Shown here one piece after another: positions 3,538 through 61,700 of a stretch of DNA of 64,000 bases; the first letter of the stretch is position 1, and each line of letters starts with the position of its first letter. A model generated the notes under the pieces. That model saw only the letters and a program-made list of their open reading frames with translations, did no database searches and was not told where the DNA came from. The stretch spans positions 7,457 through 71,456 of the forward strand of contig MGJB01000001.1 of the NCBI GenBank assembly GCA_001794055.1. The letters run 5' to 3'. This stretch comes from Candidatus Yanofskybacteria bacterium RIFCSPHIGHO2_01_FULL_41_26 (GTDB lineage Bacteria; Patescibacteriota; Minisyncoccia; 2-02-FULL-40-12; GWA2-44-9). A program made the translations under genes and the position numbers.

Positions 3538-4614
3538 GTGAACAGGAAACTTCTCTCAATAATTTTGATATTAGTCGTTTTTGGCCTTGTTGTTTTATCT
3601 TCGGCGGGAATCGTGGATGGTCAGAAGAAATTCGGTTCCTCTTATTATTATCTTACGCACCAGTTATTGTACGGAGTAATACCCGGTTTTATCGGAATGT
3701 TTGTCTTTTCTCTGATAAATTACAAGTTTTGGAAAAAGACATCATTATTTGTTTTAATCGGTTCGTTGGCGTTGATGATAATGATATTTATGCCTAATTT
3801 TGGTCATGGTCTCAAGGGTGCGACTCGGTGGATAAATCTGGGTGTTTTCTCTTTCCAGCCAGCTGAAATACTAAAACTCTCCTTGATAATATATTTGGCG
3901 GCATGGTTTGGAAACAGGGATGAAAGGACAAAGAGATGGTCTTATGGCGTGTTGCCATTTTTGATAGTTCTGTCTTTCGTGGCTTTGCTTTTATTTCTTC
4001 AACCGGATATCGGCACACTGATAGTGGTCTCGCTTATTTCTTTAGGAGTTTATTTTTTAGCTGGTCCAAGCTATAAACAGTTTGCGGGAATTTTGTTGGT
4101 CTTATTTCTGGGCTTATCGGCGATAATCGTTGTTGAACCTTACCGTTTTGATCGTTTAAAAGCTTTTTGGGATCCGTCTGTTGATCCGAGGGGAATTTCA
4201 TATCAAATAAATCAATCTTTAATATCAATCGGTTCAGGAGGATTGTTTGGCGTTGGTTATAATAACAGTTCCCAAAAGCAAGGAGGATTTTTACCGGAAG
4301 TGATAGGAGACTCGATTTTTGCTATTATTGCTGAAGAATTGGGATTGGTGGGCTCGGCGCTTACGGTTGGATTATTTGGAACCCTGTGTTTTTTTCTGGT
4401 TGGTATAGCCAAAAATGCGTCTGATAAGTTCGGAACTCTTCTTGTCATGGGGATTAATATTTGGATTATGTCACAAGCATTTGTAAATATAGCCGCCATA
4501 TCGGGACTTGTTCCTTTAACAGGTATTCCTCTGCCGTTTATCAGTTATGGTGGCACCGCTCTTGTGGTTCTGTTGTTGGGGATGGGAATTGTGTTTAATG
4601 TTGCTAAAGATTAA
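3538..4614 (+). CDS. ftsW: SEDS-family peptidoglycan glycosyltransferase (FtsW/RodA)
   Basis: 10-TM protein with the conserved C-terminal PLPFISYGG motif of FtsW/RodA. GTG start. Confidence 0.8.
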   Translation: MNRKLLSIILILVVFGLVVLSSAGIVDGQKKFGSSYYYLTHQLLYGVIPGFIGMFVFSLINYKFWKKTSLFVLIGSLALMIMIFMPNFGHGLKGATRWINLGVFSFQPAEILKLSLIIYLAAWFGNRDERTKRWSYGVLPFLIVLSFVALLLFLQPDIGTLIVVSLISLGVYFLAGPSYKQFAGILLVLFLGLSAIIVVEPYRFDRLKAFWDPSVDPRGISYQINQSLISIGSGGLFGVGYNNSSQKQGGFLPEVIGDSIFAIIAEELGLVGSALTVGLFGTLCFFLVGIAKNASDKFGTLLVMGINIWIMSQAFVNIAAISGLVPLTGIPLPFISYGGTALVVLLLGMGIVFNVAKD

Positions 4615-31874: not shown

Positions 31875-32495
31875 ATGAAAATAAGTCATGTTGTAAGAAC
31901 TCTAGTTGTATCCGATTTTTTTATTAATGCCGGTTTTTCTGTTTTCGCGCCGGTATTTGCGATATTTGTTACTAAACAAATTGACGGAGGGACTTTGGCG
32001 GTCGTCGGTTTTGCTGCCGCTATTTTTCAAATATTCAAGTCTGGCCTCCAAATTCCGATAGCCAAGTATTTGGATAAAAATCATGGCGAATATGACGACT
32101 TTTATTCAATGGTTTTTGGCACCTTTCTTATTGCATTGGTGCCTTTTTTGTATTTATTTGCTACCAAAACGAGTCATGTCTATATGATTCAAGCGCTTTA
32201 CGGTATCGGAGCATCTTTTGCCATTCCTCCTTGGTATGCCATTTTTACCAGACATGTTGACAAAATGCAGGAGAATGTGGAGTGGTCTCTGGACTCAATT
32301 GCTATTGGAATAGGTGCGGCGACATCAGCGGCTCTCGGGGGATTTTTAGCGGAAAAATTTGGTTTTCGATTTGTATTTCTTTTGGGGGGCATGCTTGCTG
32401 TTTTTGGCGCAATCCAGCAAATTAAAATTTTCCGAGATTTAAAAGGAAAAGTCTCTCAAGGTACTGTAAGACCTTTGCCTGACGGTGCCAAATAA
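31875..32495 (+). CDS. Hypothetical 6-TM membrane protein (half-MFS-like)
   Basis: 206 aa with six predicted TM helices. Confidence 0.45.
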   Translation: MKISHVVRTLVVSDFFINAGFSVFAPVFAIFVTKQIDGGTLAVVGFAAAIFQIFKSGLQIPIAKYLDKNHGEYDDFYSMVFGTFLIALVPFLYLFATKTSHVYMIQALYGIGASFAIPPWYAIFTRHVDKMQENVEWSLDSIAIGIGAATSAALGGFLAEKFGFRFVFLLGGMLAVFGAIQQIKIFRDLKGKVSQGTVRPLPDGAK

Positions 32496-34293: not shown

Positions 34294-37216
34294 ATGGTTA
34301 TGGAGAGCAAAAATAAAATCTGGAAGATGATTTTTAAACCAGAACAACCAAATCTAGAGAAAGATTTGGAATTGGACGATGAAAAGTTGCAGAACATTGT
34401 TTTAGAAAAAAAAGAATTACAGAGTGAAATTGAAAAAAAACTTAGCTTATCTAATAACGCAAACGAAATCTTTTCCTCTATTAATACCTATAAGTTTATT
34501 AGCCATGAAGATGCCGTAGAATTCTTTGATCGATTATTGGATCATCCGGCAATATATAATTGTCTTGATGGCAGTAGTGCTTACTTAATTCTAGATTTTC
34601 TTAGGGAAAAAGGTAATCCTGAGGCCGTAGAAACAATTATACGATATGTTAACCACATATTATTACCTGGGTATAAAAGACAAGCGCATCTTCAGTTCGA
34701 CTTATATCATGCCGCTTTTACGCTATTAGCTATTTTAGGCAAAGAAGCATGTGAAAAAGTGCTTCAATCTCTTGCCGAACAAGACGTGACTTTTAAGGGC
34801 TGGTTTGAAAAAAATAAAATCTCTCTTTTGGGTCTAAAGTTTCCGAGCCAAATTACAAGTTCATACAAATCGGACATCCCCCATAATGATTGGCCTCCAA
34901 ATTATCTCGATAAAACATCAACACCATCAAATGAAGAACTTTCAGTTTCACGACCGTCGGAATTTCAAAAGACCAATGACACATTGGATTTTCAATCCAG
35001 ACTTTGGGAACAAGGTAAACCCTTTAATTTTTACAGAAGATTTAGGCCGGTGGTTCCCAACAGTGTTATTGTAGACGGAGCAAATTATTTAATGGCTTTG
35101 CGTGGTACTGTGGAAAATATGGGCGATAATAATAATTTGGATCCCAGTCTAAACTTATTGTCTGGTAGGATTGAAGAAAAACTTTTAACTGCAACGGTAG
35201 AAAAACCGGAACAATCCAATCAGAAAGAAATATTCGAAATTGTTTCTCTTGGGGCAGGTGAAGTCTTGTGTTTGGCCGTTTTGGAAAATAACAGAGAAGA
35301 AGCGCTACTCCGCTTAGGAATTATAAAACAGTTTATTGATCAAAGTAAAAGCAAAATTTCAGAAATTTTTAAAATGTTTCTTTTGGATGAATTAGCTTTG
35401 ATTGAATATTATATAAAAAATGATTCTAATTTTTCTTTTCCAGAACTTCCTCAAAACGCTGAATCTTTCCTGATGTATCATGCTTGGCACACAAAAACCA
35501 GAGAAATCCCCGATTTTAGAGTTCTTTTAGCAGAAAAAGTTAGGTGGTTAATGGCAAATGATTTAACCAGCAATCTGTCATTAATAGCGTTTGGTCCTAA
35601 CAATCTTCCTATAGGGGGACCGTCTTTTGCCAGAATAATTGAAATCGTCGGAAGATACAAAAAGGGACTGGAATTATATAAAGTTGTTGACGAAAAAGAT
35701 ATGCCTATTTACTGGGAAGCCATCGATAAATTGGAAGATACCGATCCGTCAAGAATAGTTGTTTTTGGCCGAGATGGAAGATTTTTCTTTACGGCATTGA
35801 AAGCTTCGGGATTTGGCATCGGAGACAAAGAGGTTAAGTATGTGGTTATAACCAGAAACATGAAGGATCTGGAGTCAAGAGACACAATTACGGACTACTT
35901 GAAACAGAATGGAATATCTCTTGATTTTACTTTTGTCGATACAGGTTTTCGGGGTTCTATACCGGAATTGGCGATAGATTTTCTATCCCAAGACCAGGGT
36001 ATAAGCCTGTCTTCACAAGAAATAGACCGGAAAATAACTTTGTTATCAAGCTCGGAACGAACCCGAACAGAACTGTCTAGAAAAAGACGATCGAGAGACG
36101 AACAAATGAGGACTGTGGGGGTGATAGAGGATCATCGGCCCCAAAACATGGAAAGTCCGGCTCAACTGGAAATGGACGAAAGGGGAAAACTAAGACCAAA
36201 AGGTACATTTAATTCTTCTGCTGACCAGCTTGGCTATTGGATTGTAGAGCATGTATCTTTAAGGAATTTTGCGCCAAAACTTAATCCGGATAAAAGAATC
36301 GAATATAACAAAAAAGATCCTCTAAGTGGCCTGAGATTTGTTCAGGACTACAGAGGAGAATCTATCGGAACCCACCCCATGGAGTTGTGGGAAGATAAAA
36401 ATGAAGATAAAGAAAGGTTTCTCATCAAAGGCGGTCCCGAGCATACGTTAAGAGCGGATTTTGTTGGCCAGAGATTTCTACGGCAGGCCGATTTGGTGGT
36501 TCCAGACACAGAACTTGTGACAATAAACGGTCAGCTTAAATTAAAGATGGAATTTTTGGCAGACTACAAATTAATGGGGCTTCATCTTCCCGTCGAGTTT
36601 CAAAACAGCGAAAAGATTCAGTCCGCTTTGTTGGTCGATGCTTTATTGGGCCAGTATGACCGTACTCCTTGGAATTTAATGTTTAATTCGCGTTGGGGGG
36701 AGCATCGTGTTGCCTTCATTGATAACGGTGCCAGTTTGTTTTCCAGGGCCAGGGGGGGGGCACAAAGGTTTTCCGAGATACTTTGATGTGTCTCAACTGG
36801 CGGAAATACTGGCTAATCCTCAGTTTATTGGTGAACCAGTCAATGAGGCATACGACAATTTAATTGAAGTCAAAGATGGGGTTATAAAAGTTAAAAACAG
36901 AGAAAGATTTTCAGAACTTTTCAAGAAATTCTGTTTTTCTTTTGATTATGATTTTATTGATTCCGTTATTGAACAAGCGGGATATCCTGACGGTAGAAGG
37001 TCCATCCTTTTTCTGGAAGGAATTGTTGAAGATTTAACAGGAGAATTAAAAAGAATGCACCCCGGGTCATCGGATTATAAAAAAACCAACGAAGCCATAG
37101 AAACTTATAAAAAGGCTATCGAAGCTGGAGGAGAATCGTCATATCTCAAACAAGCTCTTAAGCAGAGGAGAGATGATATTATAAACATGTTCAATGGTTT
37201 GGGTTTTCAATTCTGA
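34294..37216 (+). CDS. Large (~970 aa if contiguous) protein with C-terminal PI3K/PI4K-superfamily kinase domain most like type II PI4K. Reading frame broken by a G9 homopolymer (two ORFs 34294-36786 and 36707-37216)
   Basis: Catalytic-loop-like LLVDALLGQYDRTPWNLMF and activation-loop-like RVAFIDNGASLF closely parallel PI4KII [20 protein letters not shown] / IKVAAIDNGLAF. Removing one G of ggggggggg (36752-36760) fuses the frames: ...SRARGGHKGFPRYFD... Confidence 0.55.
36752..36760 (+). repeat. G9 homopolymeric tract inside the kinase-like gene (frameshift point)
   Basis: aggggggggg cac. ORFs in frames +1 and +2 overlap exactly here. Confidence 0.9.
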
Positions 37217-37237: not shown

Positions 37238-38086
37238 ATGTCGGAAATGAATTCAAAAAAAGAGTTTGAAAAACTTACAACTCCAGAAAAATTTGAGGCG
37301 GTTAGGTTTTTAAAAGTATTCATTGTTCGCCATGGGCTCACCGAATATAAAGAACGTGAAAGTGTAAAAAAGTTTGGCAAGTGGAACCCCGGTATTCACG
37401 ACATAACCCCTGAAGGCGAAGATGAATTAAGGGATACGGCCCTAAGAATAATCCAAGAGATAAATCCCAAAACTGATATAGTTGTATTTTTATCCAGTCC
37501 TCGAGCAAGAGCTCAATCAAGCATGAGAATATTAGATGATGAATTTCGACAGAGAGGCATTGAAATTTACCAAGAAAGCCCTGTTTTAGTAGAAATGTTA
37601 AGAAGTGGCGGAGACATGTCGCCAGTGACAGGAGACAATAACGAAATAAAATTTCAAGATCAACCGCAGAATGATTATTGGGATATTGAAGAAGAGGGCG
37701 AAGAGCAACCCCAAGGAAAGCGTTTTAAAAAGTTTTTAAGTTATTTTGCGTCAATTAACCAAACATTGTTAGCTGAAAAAATTAAAAAAACTAGCAGTAG
37801 GTTGAATGGTAAAATACCTGTTTTTGTTGCAATAACTCATGGTGAAGTAACTCATGCCGGGGCTTCTCCTGCGCCAGTTTATAAAAAATCTTTTTTGGGA
37901 GAAGTTTTTCCAGATAAAAAAAGATTAAAATTACCTAGAGGAAGGTCAATGAAACTGGTTTTTGATCTTGAAAATCCCGGAAATTTTTCTGTGACTATTC
38001 CTCCTGAAACAAGCCTTTCCGGCAGTAGCGAGACAAAAAATCTTCATTTTAATTCTAAAAATGGATCTGTTGAGAATATTTATTAA
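37238..38086 (+). CDS. Histidine phosphatase superfamily protein (PGAM-like branch, RHG motif)
   Basis: FIVRHGLTEY (RHGxT catalytic motif) near the N-terminus. A second phospho-histidine-pocket region LSSPRARAQ. Acidic insert. Confidence 0.6.
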   Translation: MSEMNSKKEFEKLTTPEKFEAVRFLKVFIVRHGLTEYKERESVKKFGKWNPGIHDITPEGEDELRDTALRIIQEINPKTDIVVFLSSPRARAQSSMRILDDEFRQRGIEIYQESPVLVEMLRSGGDMSPVTGDNNEIKFQDQPQNDYWDIEEEGEEQPQGKRFKKFLSYFASINQTLLAEKIKKTSSRLNGKIPVFVAITHGEVTHAGASPAPVYKKSFLGEVFPDKKRLKLPRGRSMKLVFDLENPGNFSVTIPPETSLSGSSETKNLHFNSKNGSVENIY

Positions 38087-57190: not shown

Positions 57191-58942
57191 TTAAGGATTA
57201 ATTTTCCAGACGAAGATGGAATTGCCGATAACTTTAATTGGTTGATAGTTGGTAAGCCAGCCGTAATTTTTGTCAGTGGCGAGGGACTGTTGATAGAACG
57301 TTGCCGATACAGCGATATATCCGCCGGTCGGATTATCTGACATGAATTGGTCTTTAGTTTTGTATTTTTCGCTTGTCATCCAATAAAATTTATTACCCAA
57401 ATAATATGATTGATCAGCCCAGCCGAAATAATCAAGACTAATTTTTTTAATATCATTTCTATCAACCCAATCAGCCAGACGCTTTAAGTCTTGGCCCCAG
57501 TCAAGGTTTGAATCAACAACATATCTGTAACCGCCGGTTGGTCCGCCGGCTATTTGATTAAAATAAGTCAAGTAATAAGGAAAGATTATGATTGTTTCGG
57601 CCAATAACCAGGCACACAGAGTGCTTACGAAGACCAGATATACCCTCTTTGCCTTAACGCGTTCATAAAGAACGGATAGTTGACCCGCAACAAGAATGGC
57701 TGTACCACCATAGACTGGGATTAGATGTCTGATCCCAATATTTAAATTGGCGTTGATACTGATAATCCAATAAAAAAGCGCCCAGGAGAAGATGGCTGTT
57801 TCTGCGAAATGGATTCGCAGCCAGTTTTTCAGGCGCCGTTCTTTGGTGCGGGCATTTATAAAAAATGCGATTGTCGCGATGATAAAGAGTATTAAAAATG
57901 GAATTGGTTCTTTCAGGGCATAAATAACTGGAAAATATGATTTTACTGCTGTTTGATAAACGTTGCCCAAAAAGTAGGTTTGATTGCCGCCGACATTTCT
58001 TTGAAAAATCATCAACACCCCAAGACTGTATTGAGCAAATGGACGAAGTAAGGGTTTATCCGATGCCCATATAACAGGATCGGCAAAAAGCCGATTACCG
58101 TAAGAACCTAAAATAACAGCTGCATCCGCTTTTTGTTTTTCTCCGCTGTAATTTAAAAGATGCAATTGAAATATCGGACCGACAATGAATGCAAAACCAA
58201 CAATAATTATCAGAACTGCCTTCCAGGCCATGCTGATCATTCCCGATAATTTGTGCTGATTGGCGTATGCCCATATGACAGCCAGAAAGACGAGCAGGGG
58301 AATCAATAAGAATGCTGAAAACTTGGTTAGTTGACCGAGACCGAAAACAATCGCAGCCAACCAAAAGTTTTTGTTCCGCCAGCCGGCAGATTGATTTTCA
58401 AAATAGCGTTCAAAAAAATACAGTGTCGCTATAATGCCGGCGAGGAGAGCGATGTCAGTGGTAACTAGCCGGGAATGGGCAATAACGGTAGGAGTAAAAG
58501 AAAATAAGAATATCGCCAGAAGCGCAGCTTTGTCACCGAATAATTTTTTGGTCCAGACAAAAATTATCCATGCCGAAATAATAAAGAATAACAACATCGG
58601 CAGTTTGGCCGCGCGAACCAAAGTGATGGCATCGTTGCCTGTTTGGAAGATCAGGGCTCGGCCGAAATTCCATTGACCGTTCACGTCAGTTGGCCAGTTA
58701 GTGGGATATTTTTGAGAAAAGGCGCTTTGGTTTAGATTGAAAGGCAGCAAAGCCAATCCGGCCAGATCTTTAGCCAGTGGCGGGTGCTCCGGATTGAACT
58801 GATAGCTATGCTGGACGACATATGAATAACCGGCGCCGATGTGGGGAATTTCATCAACAACAGGCGAGTCATTCCAACCACTTGTAATTGCCAAGATGGT
58901 AGCCGAAGCAATTATTAGGAATGCTGTTAATTTGATTTTCAT
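57191..58942 (-). CDS. GT-C superfamily glycosyltransferase (PMT/ArnT, GT39/GT83-like)
   Basis: N-terminal DE motif loop (VVDEIPH) and HPPLAK motif typical of the PMT/ArnT family. ~12 TM helices. Confidence 0.65.
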   Translation of the reverse strand: MKIKLTAFLIIASATILAITSGWNDSPVVDEIPHIGAGYSYVVQHSYQFNPEHPPLAKDLAGLALLPFNLNQSAFSQKYPTNWPTDVNGQWNFGRALIFQTGNDAITLVRAAKLPMLLFFIISAWIIFVWTKKLFGDKAALLAIFLFSFTPTVIAHSRLVTTDIALLAGIIATLYFFERYFENQSAGWRNKNFWLAAIVFGLGQLTKFSAFLLIPLLVFLAVIWAYANQHKLSGMISMAWKAVLIIIVGFAFIVGPIFQLHLLNYSGEKQKADAAVILGSYGNRLFADPVIWASDKPLLRPFAQYSLGVLMIFQRNVGGNQTYFLGNVYQTAVKSYFPVIYALKEPIPFLILFIIATIAFFINARTKERRLKNWLRIHFAETAIFSWALFYWIISINANLNIGIRHLIPVYGGTAILVAGQLSVLYERVKAKRVYLVFVSTLCAWLLAETIIIFPYYLTYFNQIAGGPTGGYRYVVDSNLDWGQDLKRLADWVDRNDIKKISLDYFGWADQSYYLGNKFYWMTSEKYKTKDQFMSDNPTGGYIAVSATFYQQSLATDKNYGWLTNYQPIKVIGNSIFVWKINP

Positions 58943-58946
58943 TCCG

Positions 58947-59960
58947 TTATTTGAAATATCTCCAGTATTCCATAAATCCGATAGAAAACAAGAAAACGAT
59001 CATGACCAATGCAGTTATTACAGGGGCTTCGTGAACTGAATGAGCATCACGCATTGAATACCACGAACTTAATTTATCAAAGAACCACCAGATTCCCCGG
59101 GCGGTGAAAATCATTACCACAGGCAGAACACCAATAGTTATCAGTGTATTGTGGGCTGTGGCAGATAAAAATCCGGGTATAAGCACGATTAAGAACCATG
59201 CAAACAAGAGAGTGTGGATGGTTGAAAAGTGGCCATGCTTGCGCCTTAACCAGTGTATAAGCTCATTAATAAAACCGACAATAAAGAATATACCTATTGG
59301 CCAAGGTAAAAGTGGGGAATCCGAGAAGTTAAACATTCCTAAGGTTTTTACCAAGCTTGTGACAGATATATTTACCCCTACACTGGACATAGGGGCGGTT
59401 TGTTGCCAAAAAGATATCATGGCAGGCAAAGCAACCGCAAAAGCCGTCAAAGCAAGCAAGACGAAACCTTGAAGCAACTTGTTTTTGGCGTATTCGTATT
59501 TAGCGTGGTTAAAATCTTTTTTCAGATACCACCAATAATTTAAGAATAATAACATGACAACAATCGGCGTCGTGTAGAAAGAGGTGTTAGTATAAAATCC
59601 TAATCCGCCAAAAATACCGGCCATAGCAAAATCAGGCCGATGATTGTGTTTTAAACCCTTCCAAAGAAAATAGAAAGTATAAACAAGTACAAATGGAATT
59701 ATTATTGCGCTATCTTCCATTCGTGAAAAACTAACATGCCAGAAAGAAATTGCTGCAAGGTAGCTTGCAATAGCTGCTAAGCGCCACTCAAATAGTTCTT
59801 TAACTAACAGATAAAGCCCGATAATGGTGAGGACTCCAATGAGTGGCGGAAAGATGGTGCCCATCGTTGCGATGGGCACCATCATATAAAGACGGAAAAA
59901 AGAAGCAACTCCGACGATAATTAAAAAGATAACAAGCTCTTGTTTTTTTGTTTTTTGCAT
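58947..59960 (-). CDS. Polytopic membrane protein, possibly a second GT-C-like glycosyltransferase
   Basis: 337 aa with ~10 TM helices. Directly upstream (same strand) of the GT-C gene. Confidence 0.45.
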   Translation of the reverse strand: MQKTKKQELVIFLIIVGVASFFRLYMMVPIATMGTIFPPLIGVLTIIGLYLLVKELFEWRLAAIASYLAAISFWHVSFSRMEDSAIIIPFVLVYTFYFLWKGLKHNHRPDFAMAGIFGGLGFYTNTSFYTTPIVVMLLFLNYWWYLKKDFNHAKYEYAKNKLLQGFVLLALTAFAVALPAMISFWQQTAPMSSVGVNISVTSLVKTLGMFNFSDSPLLPWPIGIFFIVGFINELIHWLRRKHGHFSTIHTLLFAWFLIVLIPGFLSATAHNTLITIGVLPVVMIFTARGIWWFFDKLSSWYSMRDAHSVHEAPVITALVMIVFLFSIGFMEYWRYFK

Positions 59961-60022
59961 ACTTTTATATTCTAACAGAAAAGAAGTAAAGTTTTATCAA
60001 CAAACCGGAGATTGATTTTGTC

Positions 60023-60031
60023 GGGGGGGGG
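60023..60031 (+). repeat. G9 homopolymeric tract in the promoter spacer / 5' region of the 60048 gene
   Basis: ttgattttgtcGGGGGGGGGtgttatattcaaaatcATG. Lies between a -35-like TTGATT and a -10-like TTATAT. Confidence 0.85.
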
Positions 60032-60047
60032 TGTTATATTCAAAATC

Positions 60048-61700
60048 ATGGAAAGTATGCTTCAAGTCGAAAAACCAATAATCGCCGAAAAAAGCAGAGA
60101 CGAACTATATTTTGATACTCTCAAAGCCAAGAGGGATGTTTTGTCTTCTCATTATGCATTGGGCCAACTGCGAAAGGGCAGGAAAGTAGAGGAAATGTCG
60201 GATACCGAGGTTGAAGATTATAAATCAGTTAAAGAAGAATATGACAAGCGCAGAGAATTATTTCTCGTTTCATTTGGTAATTTAAACGAGAATGACAGTC
60301 AAAAAATTTCGGAGCTAACAAGCCTTACTAAAGTTGAGATTGCATTGTCTTCTTTGGATAAATCCACAGAAGCCAAAACTGAAGCAGCGGTTCCCGATGA
60401 AGTTTTAATAGGAGAAGGCCATGTTTTTAATAGTTTGATTGCTGTAGAGAGTCCTGATAGAGGCACAACAATGGCTGAAGTGAATAGGATGTTGAAATAT
60501 TCTCAAGATACTGCCCGTCCATTAGAAACCGCATACTGGGAATCTAAAAAAGCTGAACTTTTTGAAAGGCAGGAAGCCGAAACAAACCCAGACCGGCCGG
60601 CGCCAAAAGGATTTATGCAAAGAGCCAGAGATGCTTTTGAAAAGACAAAAGATGCTATTTTGGGGACCAATCGTATAAGCGGAGGTTCAGAAAGCGTTGA
60701 ATCAAGAATGTCTCCTCTTGGATTGAGATCTCAACCATTAACACAACCAGAAGCGGTGCCTCAACAATCCGAAAAAGAACCCAAGAAACCAAGCAAGTGG
60801 GGTTGGCTTAAAGAACGCGGAAAAGGTGTCTGGAATTTCGGCATTTGGGAATTTCATCAGGCGGAAAGATTAAGAATCAAAACAAAAGAAGTTGAAAATG
60901 ACGTTAGGGCTCTTGCAAGCAATATTCAACATGAGATAAATCTTGAACCGGAAGAAGCAGAAACAACCGCTTGGGAAATAGTTAACGAGCTTAAGGCAAA
61001 AAACTTGGACATTTCAGCTCCGGAATTTTTTGAAGCATCAAGGGATATTTTTGAGAAGAAAGCAAGGGAAAATGCCGAGCAGGAAAATTATATAATCCAA
61101 TCGGCATGGGAGGATCTTCAGGAAAAAGCAAAAAAATATCGGGGTGAGGCGGGCCAAGACGTGTTCACTGAAGAAGTCAGAGTTAAATTTGAATCAGACT
61201 TAAGAAAAGAATTACATAAAGTCCGCAACGGAGCCATAAAAGAAGACGTAGTTAAATTTGCGGGTGTTATGAGAAAAAATCTTGACGAGAACTGGCAATG
61301 GAGATATGTCTGGGGTGCGGCAGAGGCAGCGCTCGGTTTTATCGGAGTTAAATACCTGGTTATGAAAATAGAACAGGCGGCGCTGGCAAAATTAGCAGCT
61401 GCCGAGAAGGCCGCGGGTGCCGTAAAAGGCGGCGCTGGCGCTGTTGAACAGGCGCTTACTCAAAAGATGCACGAGAACGTTTGGACGACCTTAAAGGAAA
61501 TGGCCCAAAACGGTCCGCAGCATCTCAACTTGGATAATTCTACTTTGCAAGAGCTTAGTCAAAAGGTTTTGGATTTCAATAGTATGTATGAGCAGGAATG
61601 GGTCAATCAAGCCGTTGAGGGTCTTAGAAGCTCAAGAGTTTTACCTGAAGGATTACCGATCAACATACCCCCTGAAGTATTGAAAGTTCTTGGATATTAA
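60048..61700 (+). CDS. Hypothetical 550-aa charged/coiled-coil protein, possibly surface or secreted
   Basis: Long ORF with no recognisable domain. Single hydrophobic stretch near residue 430. Confidence 0.5.
   Translation: MESMLQVEKPIIAEKSRDELYFDTLKAKRDVLSSHYALGQLRKGRKVEEMSDTEVEDYKSVKEEYDKRRELFLVSFGNLNENDSQKISELTSLTKVEIALSSLDKSTEAKTEAAVPDEVLIGEGHVFNSLIAVESPDRGTTMAEVNRMLKYSQDTARPLETAYWESKKAELFERQEAETNPDRPAPKGFMQRARDAFEKTKDAILGTNRISGGSESVESRMSPLGLRSQPLTQPEAVPQQSEKEPKKPSKWGWLKERGKGVWNFGIWEFHQAERLRIKTKEVENDVRALASNIQHEINLEPEEAETTAWEIVNELKAKNLDISAPEFFEASRDIFEKKARENAEQENYIIQSAWEDLQEKAKKYRGEAGQDVFTEEVRVKFESDLRKELHKVRNGAIKEDVVKFAGVMRKNLDENWQWRYVWGAAEAALGFIGVKYLVMKIEQAALAKLAAAEKAAGAVKGGAGAVEQALTQKMHENVWTTLKEMAQNGPQHLNLDNSTLQELSQKVLDFNSMYEQEWVNQAVEGLRSSRVLPEGLPINIPPEVLKVLGY

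Follow-up and report, generated by a model that had tools for sequence, protein, structure and literature searches.

Why is the gene for a large kinase-like protein interrupted exactly at a run of nine G in an uncultured bacterium, and does the break reflect an assembly error, a gene in decay or a genetic switch? The question arises in a stretch of 64,000 nucleotides from Candidatus Yanofskybacteria bacterium RIFCSPHIGHO2_01_FULL_41_26 (contig MGJB01000001.1 of assembly GCA_001794055.1, positions 7,457 to 71,456), hereafter called the window, in which a tract of nine G (G9) occupies positions 36752-36760. We conclude that this G9 is genuine and heritable: slipped-strand mispairing has inserted one G (+1) into a hypermutable poly-G tract of the kinase-like gene. 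The reading that we prefer, at a probability of roughly 0.55, is that it is an on/off tract of the contingency type, fixed at its OFF length in the sampled population and truncating the C-lobe of the kinase-like domain.

The frame break and the protein that it truncates

Direct reading of the window sequence gives exactly nine G on the + strand at 36752-36760, and two open reading frames (ORFs), 34294-36786 (830 aa) and 36707-37216, overlap across the run. The locus is composed of the following parts.

34294-36786, + strand: truncated reading frame of 830 aa, comprising an N-terminal helical region, a middle 'GRDG...DTGxxGS' domain, a kinase-like N-lobe, the putative catalytic loop and the putative metal-binding motif
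36655-36675, + strand: Y-D-R-T-P-W-N codons, putative catalytic loop (D...N) of the kinase-like domain, conserved in distant homologues
36718-36729, + strand: I-D-N-G codons, putative metal-binding motif equivalent to DFG; IDFG or IDHG in distant homologues
36752-36760, + strand: G9 homopolymer, which would be G8 in the intact frame; the frame is shifted by the ninth G, a +1 insertion
36761-37216, + strand: out-of-frame remainder, open over 151 codons plus stop, encoding the conserved C-terminal helical part (C-lobe) and beginning HKGFPRYFD...NPQF...DGRRS
36784-36786, + strand: premature TGA that ends the 830-aa frame, 8 codons past the tract

Translation of tract-length variants yielded a single open frame with G8 or G11 (973 and 974 aa, respectively), while G7 and G10 led to other truncations. 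In an alignment, the merged G8 protein agrees, all along the tract region, with the family consensus SRARGGHKGFP..FD..QL..NPQF: the consensus that its 973 residues match is FIDNGASLFSRARGGHKGFP, and the merged protein itself reads ...AFIDNGASLFSRARGGHKGFPRYFD...NPQF.... The tract is made up of the codons of a conserved R-G-G (AGG GGG GGG) plus one extra G, and the peptide spanning it is SRARGGHKGFPR in the full-length product and SRARGGAQRFSEIL in the truncated one. Because the merged protein matches the family consensus at RGG, the break can be placed in the R-G-G codons, and the ancestral state of the tract is G8. These results agree with the preliminary description of the window, which had reported nine G at the break between two overlapping ORFs, one continuous protein of ~970 aa with eight or eleven G, and a truncation just past the IDNG motif; the tract indeed lies 12 residues after IDNG. 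As is characteristic of contingency loci, a single G more or less decides whether the complete or a shortened product is encoded, the frame behind the tract being kept, and the G/C repeats found here are of a length prone to slippage (about 7-8 nt or more) and lie in a coding region or a predicted promoter.

We also considered a split gene, the second ORF of which would be translated independently. This is unlikely, as the frame of the second ORF has no ATG near the break. The ATG overlapping the stop (TGATG) belongs to the third frame and opens only 25 codons, and the sole candidate start is a GTG at 36788 that has no visible Shine-Dalgarno sequence. Public metagenome-assembled genomes (MAGs) list two hypothetical proteins here, but the correct reading is a single frameshifted gene.

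The 830-aa product is identical to the hypothetical proteins OGM99259.1 and OGN20941.1 from two Candidatus Yanofskybacteria MAGs of the Rifle aquifer, and the window sequence is contained in MGKG01000028.1 of GCA_001794675.1. A homology search retrieved orthologues of 980-1075 aa that covered up to 96% of the merged sequence; judging from the sequences retrieved, the ~970-aa protein with its C-terminal kinase-like domain appears to be confined to bacteria of the Candidate Phyla Radiation (CPR). Scans of the merged protein, the intact orthologue P0002 and the neighbouring genes against Pfam, NCBIfam and PADLOC assigned the kinase-like protein to no family, and a profile search of PDB sequences returned noise only. 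One distant homologue gave weak, sub-threshold matches to the Pfam families PI3_PI4_kinase and ABC1. An AlphaFold model of moderate confidence (mean pLDDT 66; mostly 60-88 in the C-terminal 300 residues) was matched by Foldseek to H. pylori CtkA (3akk, 3akl) with a probability of 1.0 and a target-normalised TM-score of 0.45-0.49, and further to HipA, mTOR/PI3K, COQ8, RIO and PRPK (probability 0.9-1.0 across matches). The model thus predicts a bilobal protein-kinase-like fold for the C-terminal domain. The motifs YDRTPWN and IDNG/IDFG are conserved in about 50 homologous domains and would, by analogy, correspond to the catalytic loop and the DFG equivalent. Together with the Foldseek matches, these motifs bear out the earlier designation of the gene as kinase-like. 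On the same analogy, the G9 product would keep its N-terminal and middle domains and lose everything past DFG+12, i.e. the whole C-lobe; with the whole C-lobe removed, the 830-aa product is presumably kinase-dead.

The protein shares with HipA/CtkA-type and PI3K/PI4K-like atypical kinases a superposing predicted C-terminal domain, a D-x4-N catalytic loop and a DFG-like motif. It differs from them in having no significant Pfam, NCBIfam, PADLOC or PDB-sequence match and in its unique architecture, in which a helical N-terminus of ~430 aa is combined with the 'GRDG...DTGxxGS' middle domain. The conserved 'SRA[RQ]GGxKGF' motif past DFG is without a named counterpart. An exhaustive representative search located the kinase-like domain of ~280 aa also inside giant proteins of about 1,800-5,700 aa, among them P0037, P0038, P0041, P0045, P0050, P0053 and P0064 with 2,300-5,700 aa. 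This context suggests that the domain is used as a module, in the manner of effectors or toxins; the three large proteins that were scanned (P0037, P0040 and P0046) contained no Pfam domains. Some other members of the family retain the N-terminal and middle domains and have a different C-terminus. The gene that directly follows the kinase-like gene (37238-38086) resembles the histidine phosphatase superfamily (His_Phos_1, SixA-like) weakly and below threshold. The two may form a kinase/phosphatase pair; this neighbour is not conserved at all orthologous loci.

Tract length in the window species, its relatives and the gene family

In all, 19 contigs, which stem from several samples and from more than one assembler, encode exactly the G9 product; they include IDBA-type ANAN16 scaffolds from two BioSamples, contigs of three MEGAHIT (k141) assemblies and of a Logan assembly, and an NCBI MAG. 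Two NCBI MAG protein records carry the G9 product, and G9 was present in all six loci that were fetched. Two contigs (L004 and L006) differ from the window by single-nucleotide polymorphisms (SNPs) at 36992 and 37392, and L004 additionally at 32045; since these SNP-distinct contigs all have G9, at least two haplotypes share it. An exact look-up among about 15 billion proteins found no G7, G8, G10 or G11 product of the window species, nor did a homology search turn up a nearly identical protein of 973 aa. The window species was not among the results of a metagenome scan for relatives. The OFF length (G9) is fixed at consensus level in the sampled Rifle population. The segment past the tract is 62-64% identical to its orthologues, and the intact orthologues are 64.5% identical to each other. 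Given this equal identity, the out-of-frame segment has not undergone long-term decay.

Orthologues without a tract encode RGG by a variety of codons (AGA GGT GGG, AGA GGC GGT, AGA GGT GGA, CGG GGT GGT, CGC GGC GGA, AGA GGA GGT and CGT GGG GGG), all of them in frame. A different situation is found in species 2 (about 60% aa identity), which reads AAG GGG GGG at the orthologous tract. One of its loci (L007) has G8 and is broken exactly at the tract (K-G-G-A-stop), and two others (L013 and L036) have G7 and encode an intact protein of 1036 aa; over 1.5 kb, a single G is the only difference between L007 and L036. The intact 1036-aa form (P0011) is included in the P0004 cluster. From these sequences, the orthologous tract of species 2 appears to be polymorphic in length, with an ON and an OFF state. 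In the same protein collection, exact look-up found neither the G7 nor the G9 product derived from L007. In a neighbour-joining tree, species 2 is placed nearer to P0002, which has no tract, than to the protein of the window; thus, the tract was either gained twice or retained over a long divergence. The comparison of tract lengths among relatives, which had been proposed at the outset, hence gave a divided answer, namely variation in species 2 (G7/G8) and G9 only in the window species. Separately, 12 SNPs within 60 bp distinguish L007 (4643-4702) from L013 and change the invariant GRDGRFFFTALKAS motif to GRDGHFFFTALKAC; this cluster may reflect recombination, a chimeric assembly or the onset of decay.

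Two further species are disrupted as well. In species 3 (P0007; L034 = Ga0209542_10028391, about 4590-4600), a TAA replaces the Gln of the conserved NPQF, 25 codons past RGG. The truncated product of 911 aa is encoded on 5 contigs, and the frame behind the nonsense codon is conserved and open. Species 4 (L056 and L057) reads AGA GGG GGG plus one G, i.e. G7 where G6 would be in frame (4045-4051 in L056, which is JBGGGU010000643.1 of GCA_041643395.1). Upstream, a 7-bp tandem duplication (ATACCAT, at about 2820-2835) breaks the conserved YHAW...PDFRVLL motif, so that the orthologue is split into three ORFs. With these lesions, the species 4 orthologue is a true, irreversible pseudogene.

Four more homologues carry long G/C tracts (8-10) that are in frame and lie at other positions of the gene.

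L025: G9 in the kinase N-lobe, encoding PGGG
L030: G10 in the N-terminal region, encoding KGGG
L038: C8 at codons 11-13, encoding PPP
L050: G8 at MKQAGG

Counting the window G9, the L007 G8 and these four, the 22 non-redundant genes of the family (62.6 kb) contain six G/C tracts of at least 8, at 5 or more positions, compared with a single one in the remaining 141 kb of DNA (binomial p = 0.004). The Markov expectation for the family genes is 1.1 tracts (P = 0.001; about 0.005 without the window). The tracts are thus over-represented relative to base composition and recur in one gene family, as is the case for contingency loci.

How improbable is the tract within the window itself? The window has a G+C content of ~40%. 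It contains 49 G/C runs of length five and 11 of length six; lengths seven and eight do not occur, and the two runs of length nine are both G on the + strand, the second one at 60023-60031 (see below). A first-order Markov model predicts 5.4 runs of at least 7, 1.4 of at least 8 and 0.37 of at least 9 per window, from which the analytic probability of at least two runs of 9 or more is ~0.05. Extrapolation of the real run-length decay gives ~0.13-0.17 expected runs and a P of ~0.01. Runs of seven or eight, of which the Markov model predicts about 5, are missing altogether, and the length distribution is bimodal. In a dinucleotide shuffle, the G8 pattern GGGGGGGG was not significant when taken alone (21/100 shuffles). 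GGG is the rarest Gly codon (12%), and under local codon usage the probability that RGG is encoded as AGG GGG GGG is ~0.003. Composition alone thus makes the window tract only moderately improbable, and stronger indications come from the bimodal distribution and from the choice of codons. The preliminary description had called the run highly unexpected by chance in such AT-rich DNA. What stands of this is a moderate improbability (P ~0.01-0.05); the wording was too strong, and a window of ~40% G+C is not very AT-rich. GC skew is positive throughout the window, and most of its genes lie on the + strand.

Artefact, recoding, gene loss or switch

A sequencing or assembly artefact, with a true length of G8 and an intact gene, is hardly credible. 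Homopolymers are the classic site of indel errors, and an ANAN16 scaffold with an N10 gap at the second tract (L022) shows that an assembler had difficulty there. However, G9 was recovered on contigs from differing samples, assemblers and repositories, SNP-distinct haplotypes included, the G8 product is absent from the protein collection searched, and Illumina consensus errors at a 9-mer would not be expected to be unanimous. With an identical G9 assembled independently many times and on two SNP haplotypes, the assembly error that had initially been offered as one of two explanations is effectively refuted. Where CPR MAGs show comparable poly-G breaks, these should not by default be 'corrected' as assembly errors. 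Recoding would make G9 the working form, from which RNA polymerase slippage or +1 frameshifting of tRNA-Gly on GGG_GGG_G would generate isoforms of 830 and about 973 aa. It would fit the finding of exactly +1 G at the same site in three species (G9, G8 and G7, where G8, G7 and G6 would be in frame) and the intact, conserved downstream frame, and G-runs permit perfect re-pairing of tRNA-Gly after a +1 slip, as at sufD-type sites. Nevertheless, we regard recoding as improbable. In most orthologues the site lacks a slippery run and the frame simply continues across it; in-frame alleles are known from species 2 as well, the species 4 gene carries another frameshift unrelated to the tract, and in one haplotype of the window species a conserved downstream residue is mutated. 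Folds downstream of the tract were no better than those of shuffled sequences (z = -1.6 and +0.07), the zero-frame A-site codon is GCA and thus neither a stop nor rare, and transcriptional slippage of high efficiency is known chiefly from A/T runs. The locus resembles known cases of programmed frameshifting and transcriptional slippage (prfB +1, dnaX, insertion sequence (IS) elements) in its homopolymeric slippery run at a frame junction and its conserved downstream frame, yet it differs from them in that the site is unconserved, has no stimulatory structure or A-site stop, and occurs in in-frame alleles. A programmed frameshift was rejected as the main explanation because the downstream structure is missing and the site is not conserved; leaky expression through slippage may occur.

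The main rival is plain pseudogenisation, in which a +1 slippage at the GGG-GGG hot spot became fixed and the gene, or its kinase module, is being lost without adaptive switching. A number of observations favour such a loss and weigh against a switch. Neither an ON allele (G8/G11) nor any other length was found for the window species, in assemblies or in the protein collection; both G9 tracts of the window are invariant in every contig that spans them, and the G9 allele is old enough to sit on two SNP haplotypes. In one of these (L004 and L006), the change 36992 G>T turns the conserved Gly of 'DGRRS' into Cys, a damaging substitution in the out-of-frame part which hints that this segment may currently be under relaxed constraint. 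In species 4, the +1 recurs on a tract of only six G and is joined by a second frameshift, species 3 has its nonsense codon nearby, 25 codons downstream and on 5 contigs, and in all, four species among the orthologues that bear the kinase domain are disrupted in the same region. Given the species 4 pseudogene and the species 3 nonsense codon, recurrent loss needs no switch. The chance statistics from the window alone are modest as well (P about 0.01-0.05). What argues against mere loss is that the 151 downstream codons form an uninterrupted frame whose conservation equals that of intact orthologues, that species 2 has ON and OFF lengths on near-identical backgrounds, and that four other homologues have in-frame G8-G10/C8 tracts with an enrichment across the family, where merely harmful tracts should have been purged. 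In addition, the known behaviour of slipping homopolymers leads one to expect an appreciable rate of reversion for a G9 tract. On balance, we consider plain pseudogenisation unlikely, albeit an alternative to be taken seriously.

The recurrence of tracts across the family and the ON/OFF polymorphism of species 2 favour, on sequence comparison, the contingency-locus reading. In the corresponding mechanism, slippage of DNA polymerase would add or remove a G and thereby toggle the frame, with G8 as the ON state that would give the full 973-aa protein and G9 as the OFF state that would give the 830-aa product. The phase-variation switch named in the preliminary description therefore gains support by comparison (G7/G8 in species 2, the family-wide tract enrichment and the undecayed downstream part), whereas it is weakened by the exclusive OFF length in the window species, the damaging substitution in one haplotype and the multi-lesion pseudogene of species 4. 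Reversible, selected switching in the window organism itself is plausible. A wider proposal, to which we give somewhat less than even odds, is that the CPR-specific kinase-like family is a contingency gene family, in which hypermutable G/C tracts at five or more positions would have been independently acquired or retained in different lineages of Parcubacteria and would stochastically switch the kinase module.

A second tract in a predicted promoter, and known phase-variable systems

The second G9 of the window had been described as lying in a promoter, and it does fall within the 17-nt spacer of a predicted one. It belongs to an intergenic region of 87 nt between a divergent PMT_2 operon and a gene for a 550-aa protein.

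57191-58942: second PMT/PMT_2 gene, following the 58947-59960 gene
58947-59960, - strand: PMT_2-family glycosyltransferase gene, divergent
60012-60040, + strand: predicted sigma-70-type promoter TTGATT-17-TG-n-TATATT, with the G9 in its spacer
60023-60031, + strand: second G9, non-coding, in the predicted promoter spacer
60048-61700, + strand: conserved hypothetical protein of 550 aa, 3' of the tract-bearing promoter; ATG 60048 set by alignment of orthologues

The predicted promoter would give a nearly leaderless transcript from the ATG at 60048. In nine of ten contigs fetched from different samples, the second tract is G9. The tenth (L022, ANAN16 SAMN03842436 scaffold_31753, about 662-680) shows eight bases of the run and then directly an N10 scaffolding gap; length heterogeneity or a drop in coverage possibly made the assembly break at the homopolymer. 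The same G9, within TTGACA-N17-TAAATT, occurs in a species with 63% identity in the downstream protein (1476-1484 in the four contigs L052-L055), and a species at 77% identity (L051, about 690-700) has the interrupted GGTGATGG in place of G9. No length variation of the second tract was seen in the nine spanning contigs or in the four contigs of the species at 63% identity. The conservation of a non-coding homopolymer at such divergence implies selection on the run or on the spacer length.

Promoter-spacer homopolymers, the second classical arrangement in phase variation through repeats, are known from Neisseria, where the poly-G of porA and the poly-C of opc lie between -35 and -10. The nspA promoter region likewise contains a homopolymeric tract (PMC6389960). 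The second G9 resembles these systems of phase variation in its position between the predicted -35 and -10 elements, where its length sets the spacer and G9 gives the optimal 17 nt, and in being kept at the same place in another species. It differs in that the tract is invariantly G9 in the contigs compared and in that the promoter is a predicted one.

Repeat-mediated phase variation is textbook biology of host-adapted pathogens, while the CPR/Patescibacteria are uncultured bacteria with tiny genomes that are thought to live attached to other cells. A literature search for repeat-mediated phase variation in CPR, Patescibacteria, Parcubacteria or Saccharibacteria retrieved no relevant paper. 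If the wider proposal is true, the tracts of the family, together with the conserved G9 promoter spacer beside surface-glycosylation genes, would be the first evidence for phase variation through simple sequence repeats in CPR, and ultra-small episymbionts would bet-hedge like host-adapted pathogens, perhaps when they interact with host cells or phages. If the tracts switch, populations would diversify stochastically, and the uncharacterised kinase-like family would be a target of fluctuating selection, which would point to a function in host or phage interaction.

For the coding tract, we compared contingency loci of Campylobacter jejuni, Neisseria (hmbR, hpuAB and pgtA), Helicobacter and Bordetella and the 7C tract in glpK of Mycobacterium tuberculosis, drawing on the literature on intragenic poly-G/C phase variation (PMC8355987, PMC3786947, PMC2193922, PMC1891110, PMC10334774, 10.1101/717272, PMC2831843). 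Like these, the locus has a G/C homopolymer of ~7-10 nt in a coding region, where a change of one base toggles the product and the downstream frame is intact; tract length differs between close strains, here in species 2, and tracts are over-represented in particular gene families. In contrast to the known systems, which belong to host-adapted pathogens, the host is an uncultured groundwater bacterium of the CPR/Patescibacteria, and the target is a large, cytoplasmic-looking kinase-like protein instead of a surface, lipooligosaccharide (LOS)/capsule or restriction-modification gene. Furthermore, the tract lies near the 3' end in a motif of the predicted catalytic domain, so that only the C-lobe would be lost, and only the OFF state is seen in the window species. 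Taken together, the contingency reading amounts to a known type of system in an unexpected group of organisms.

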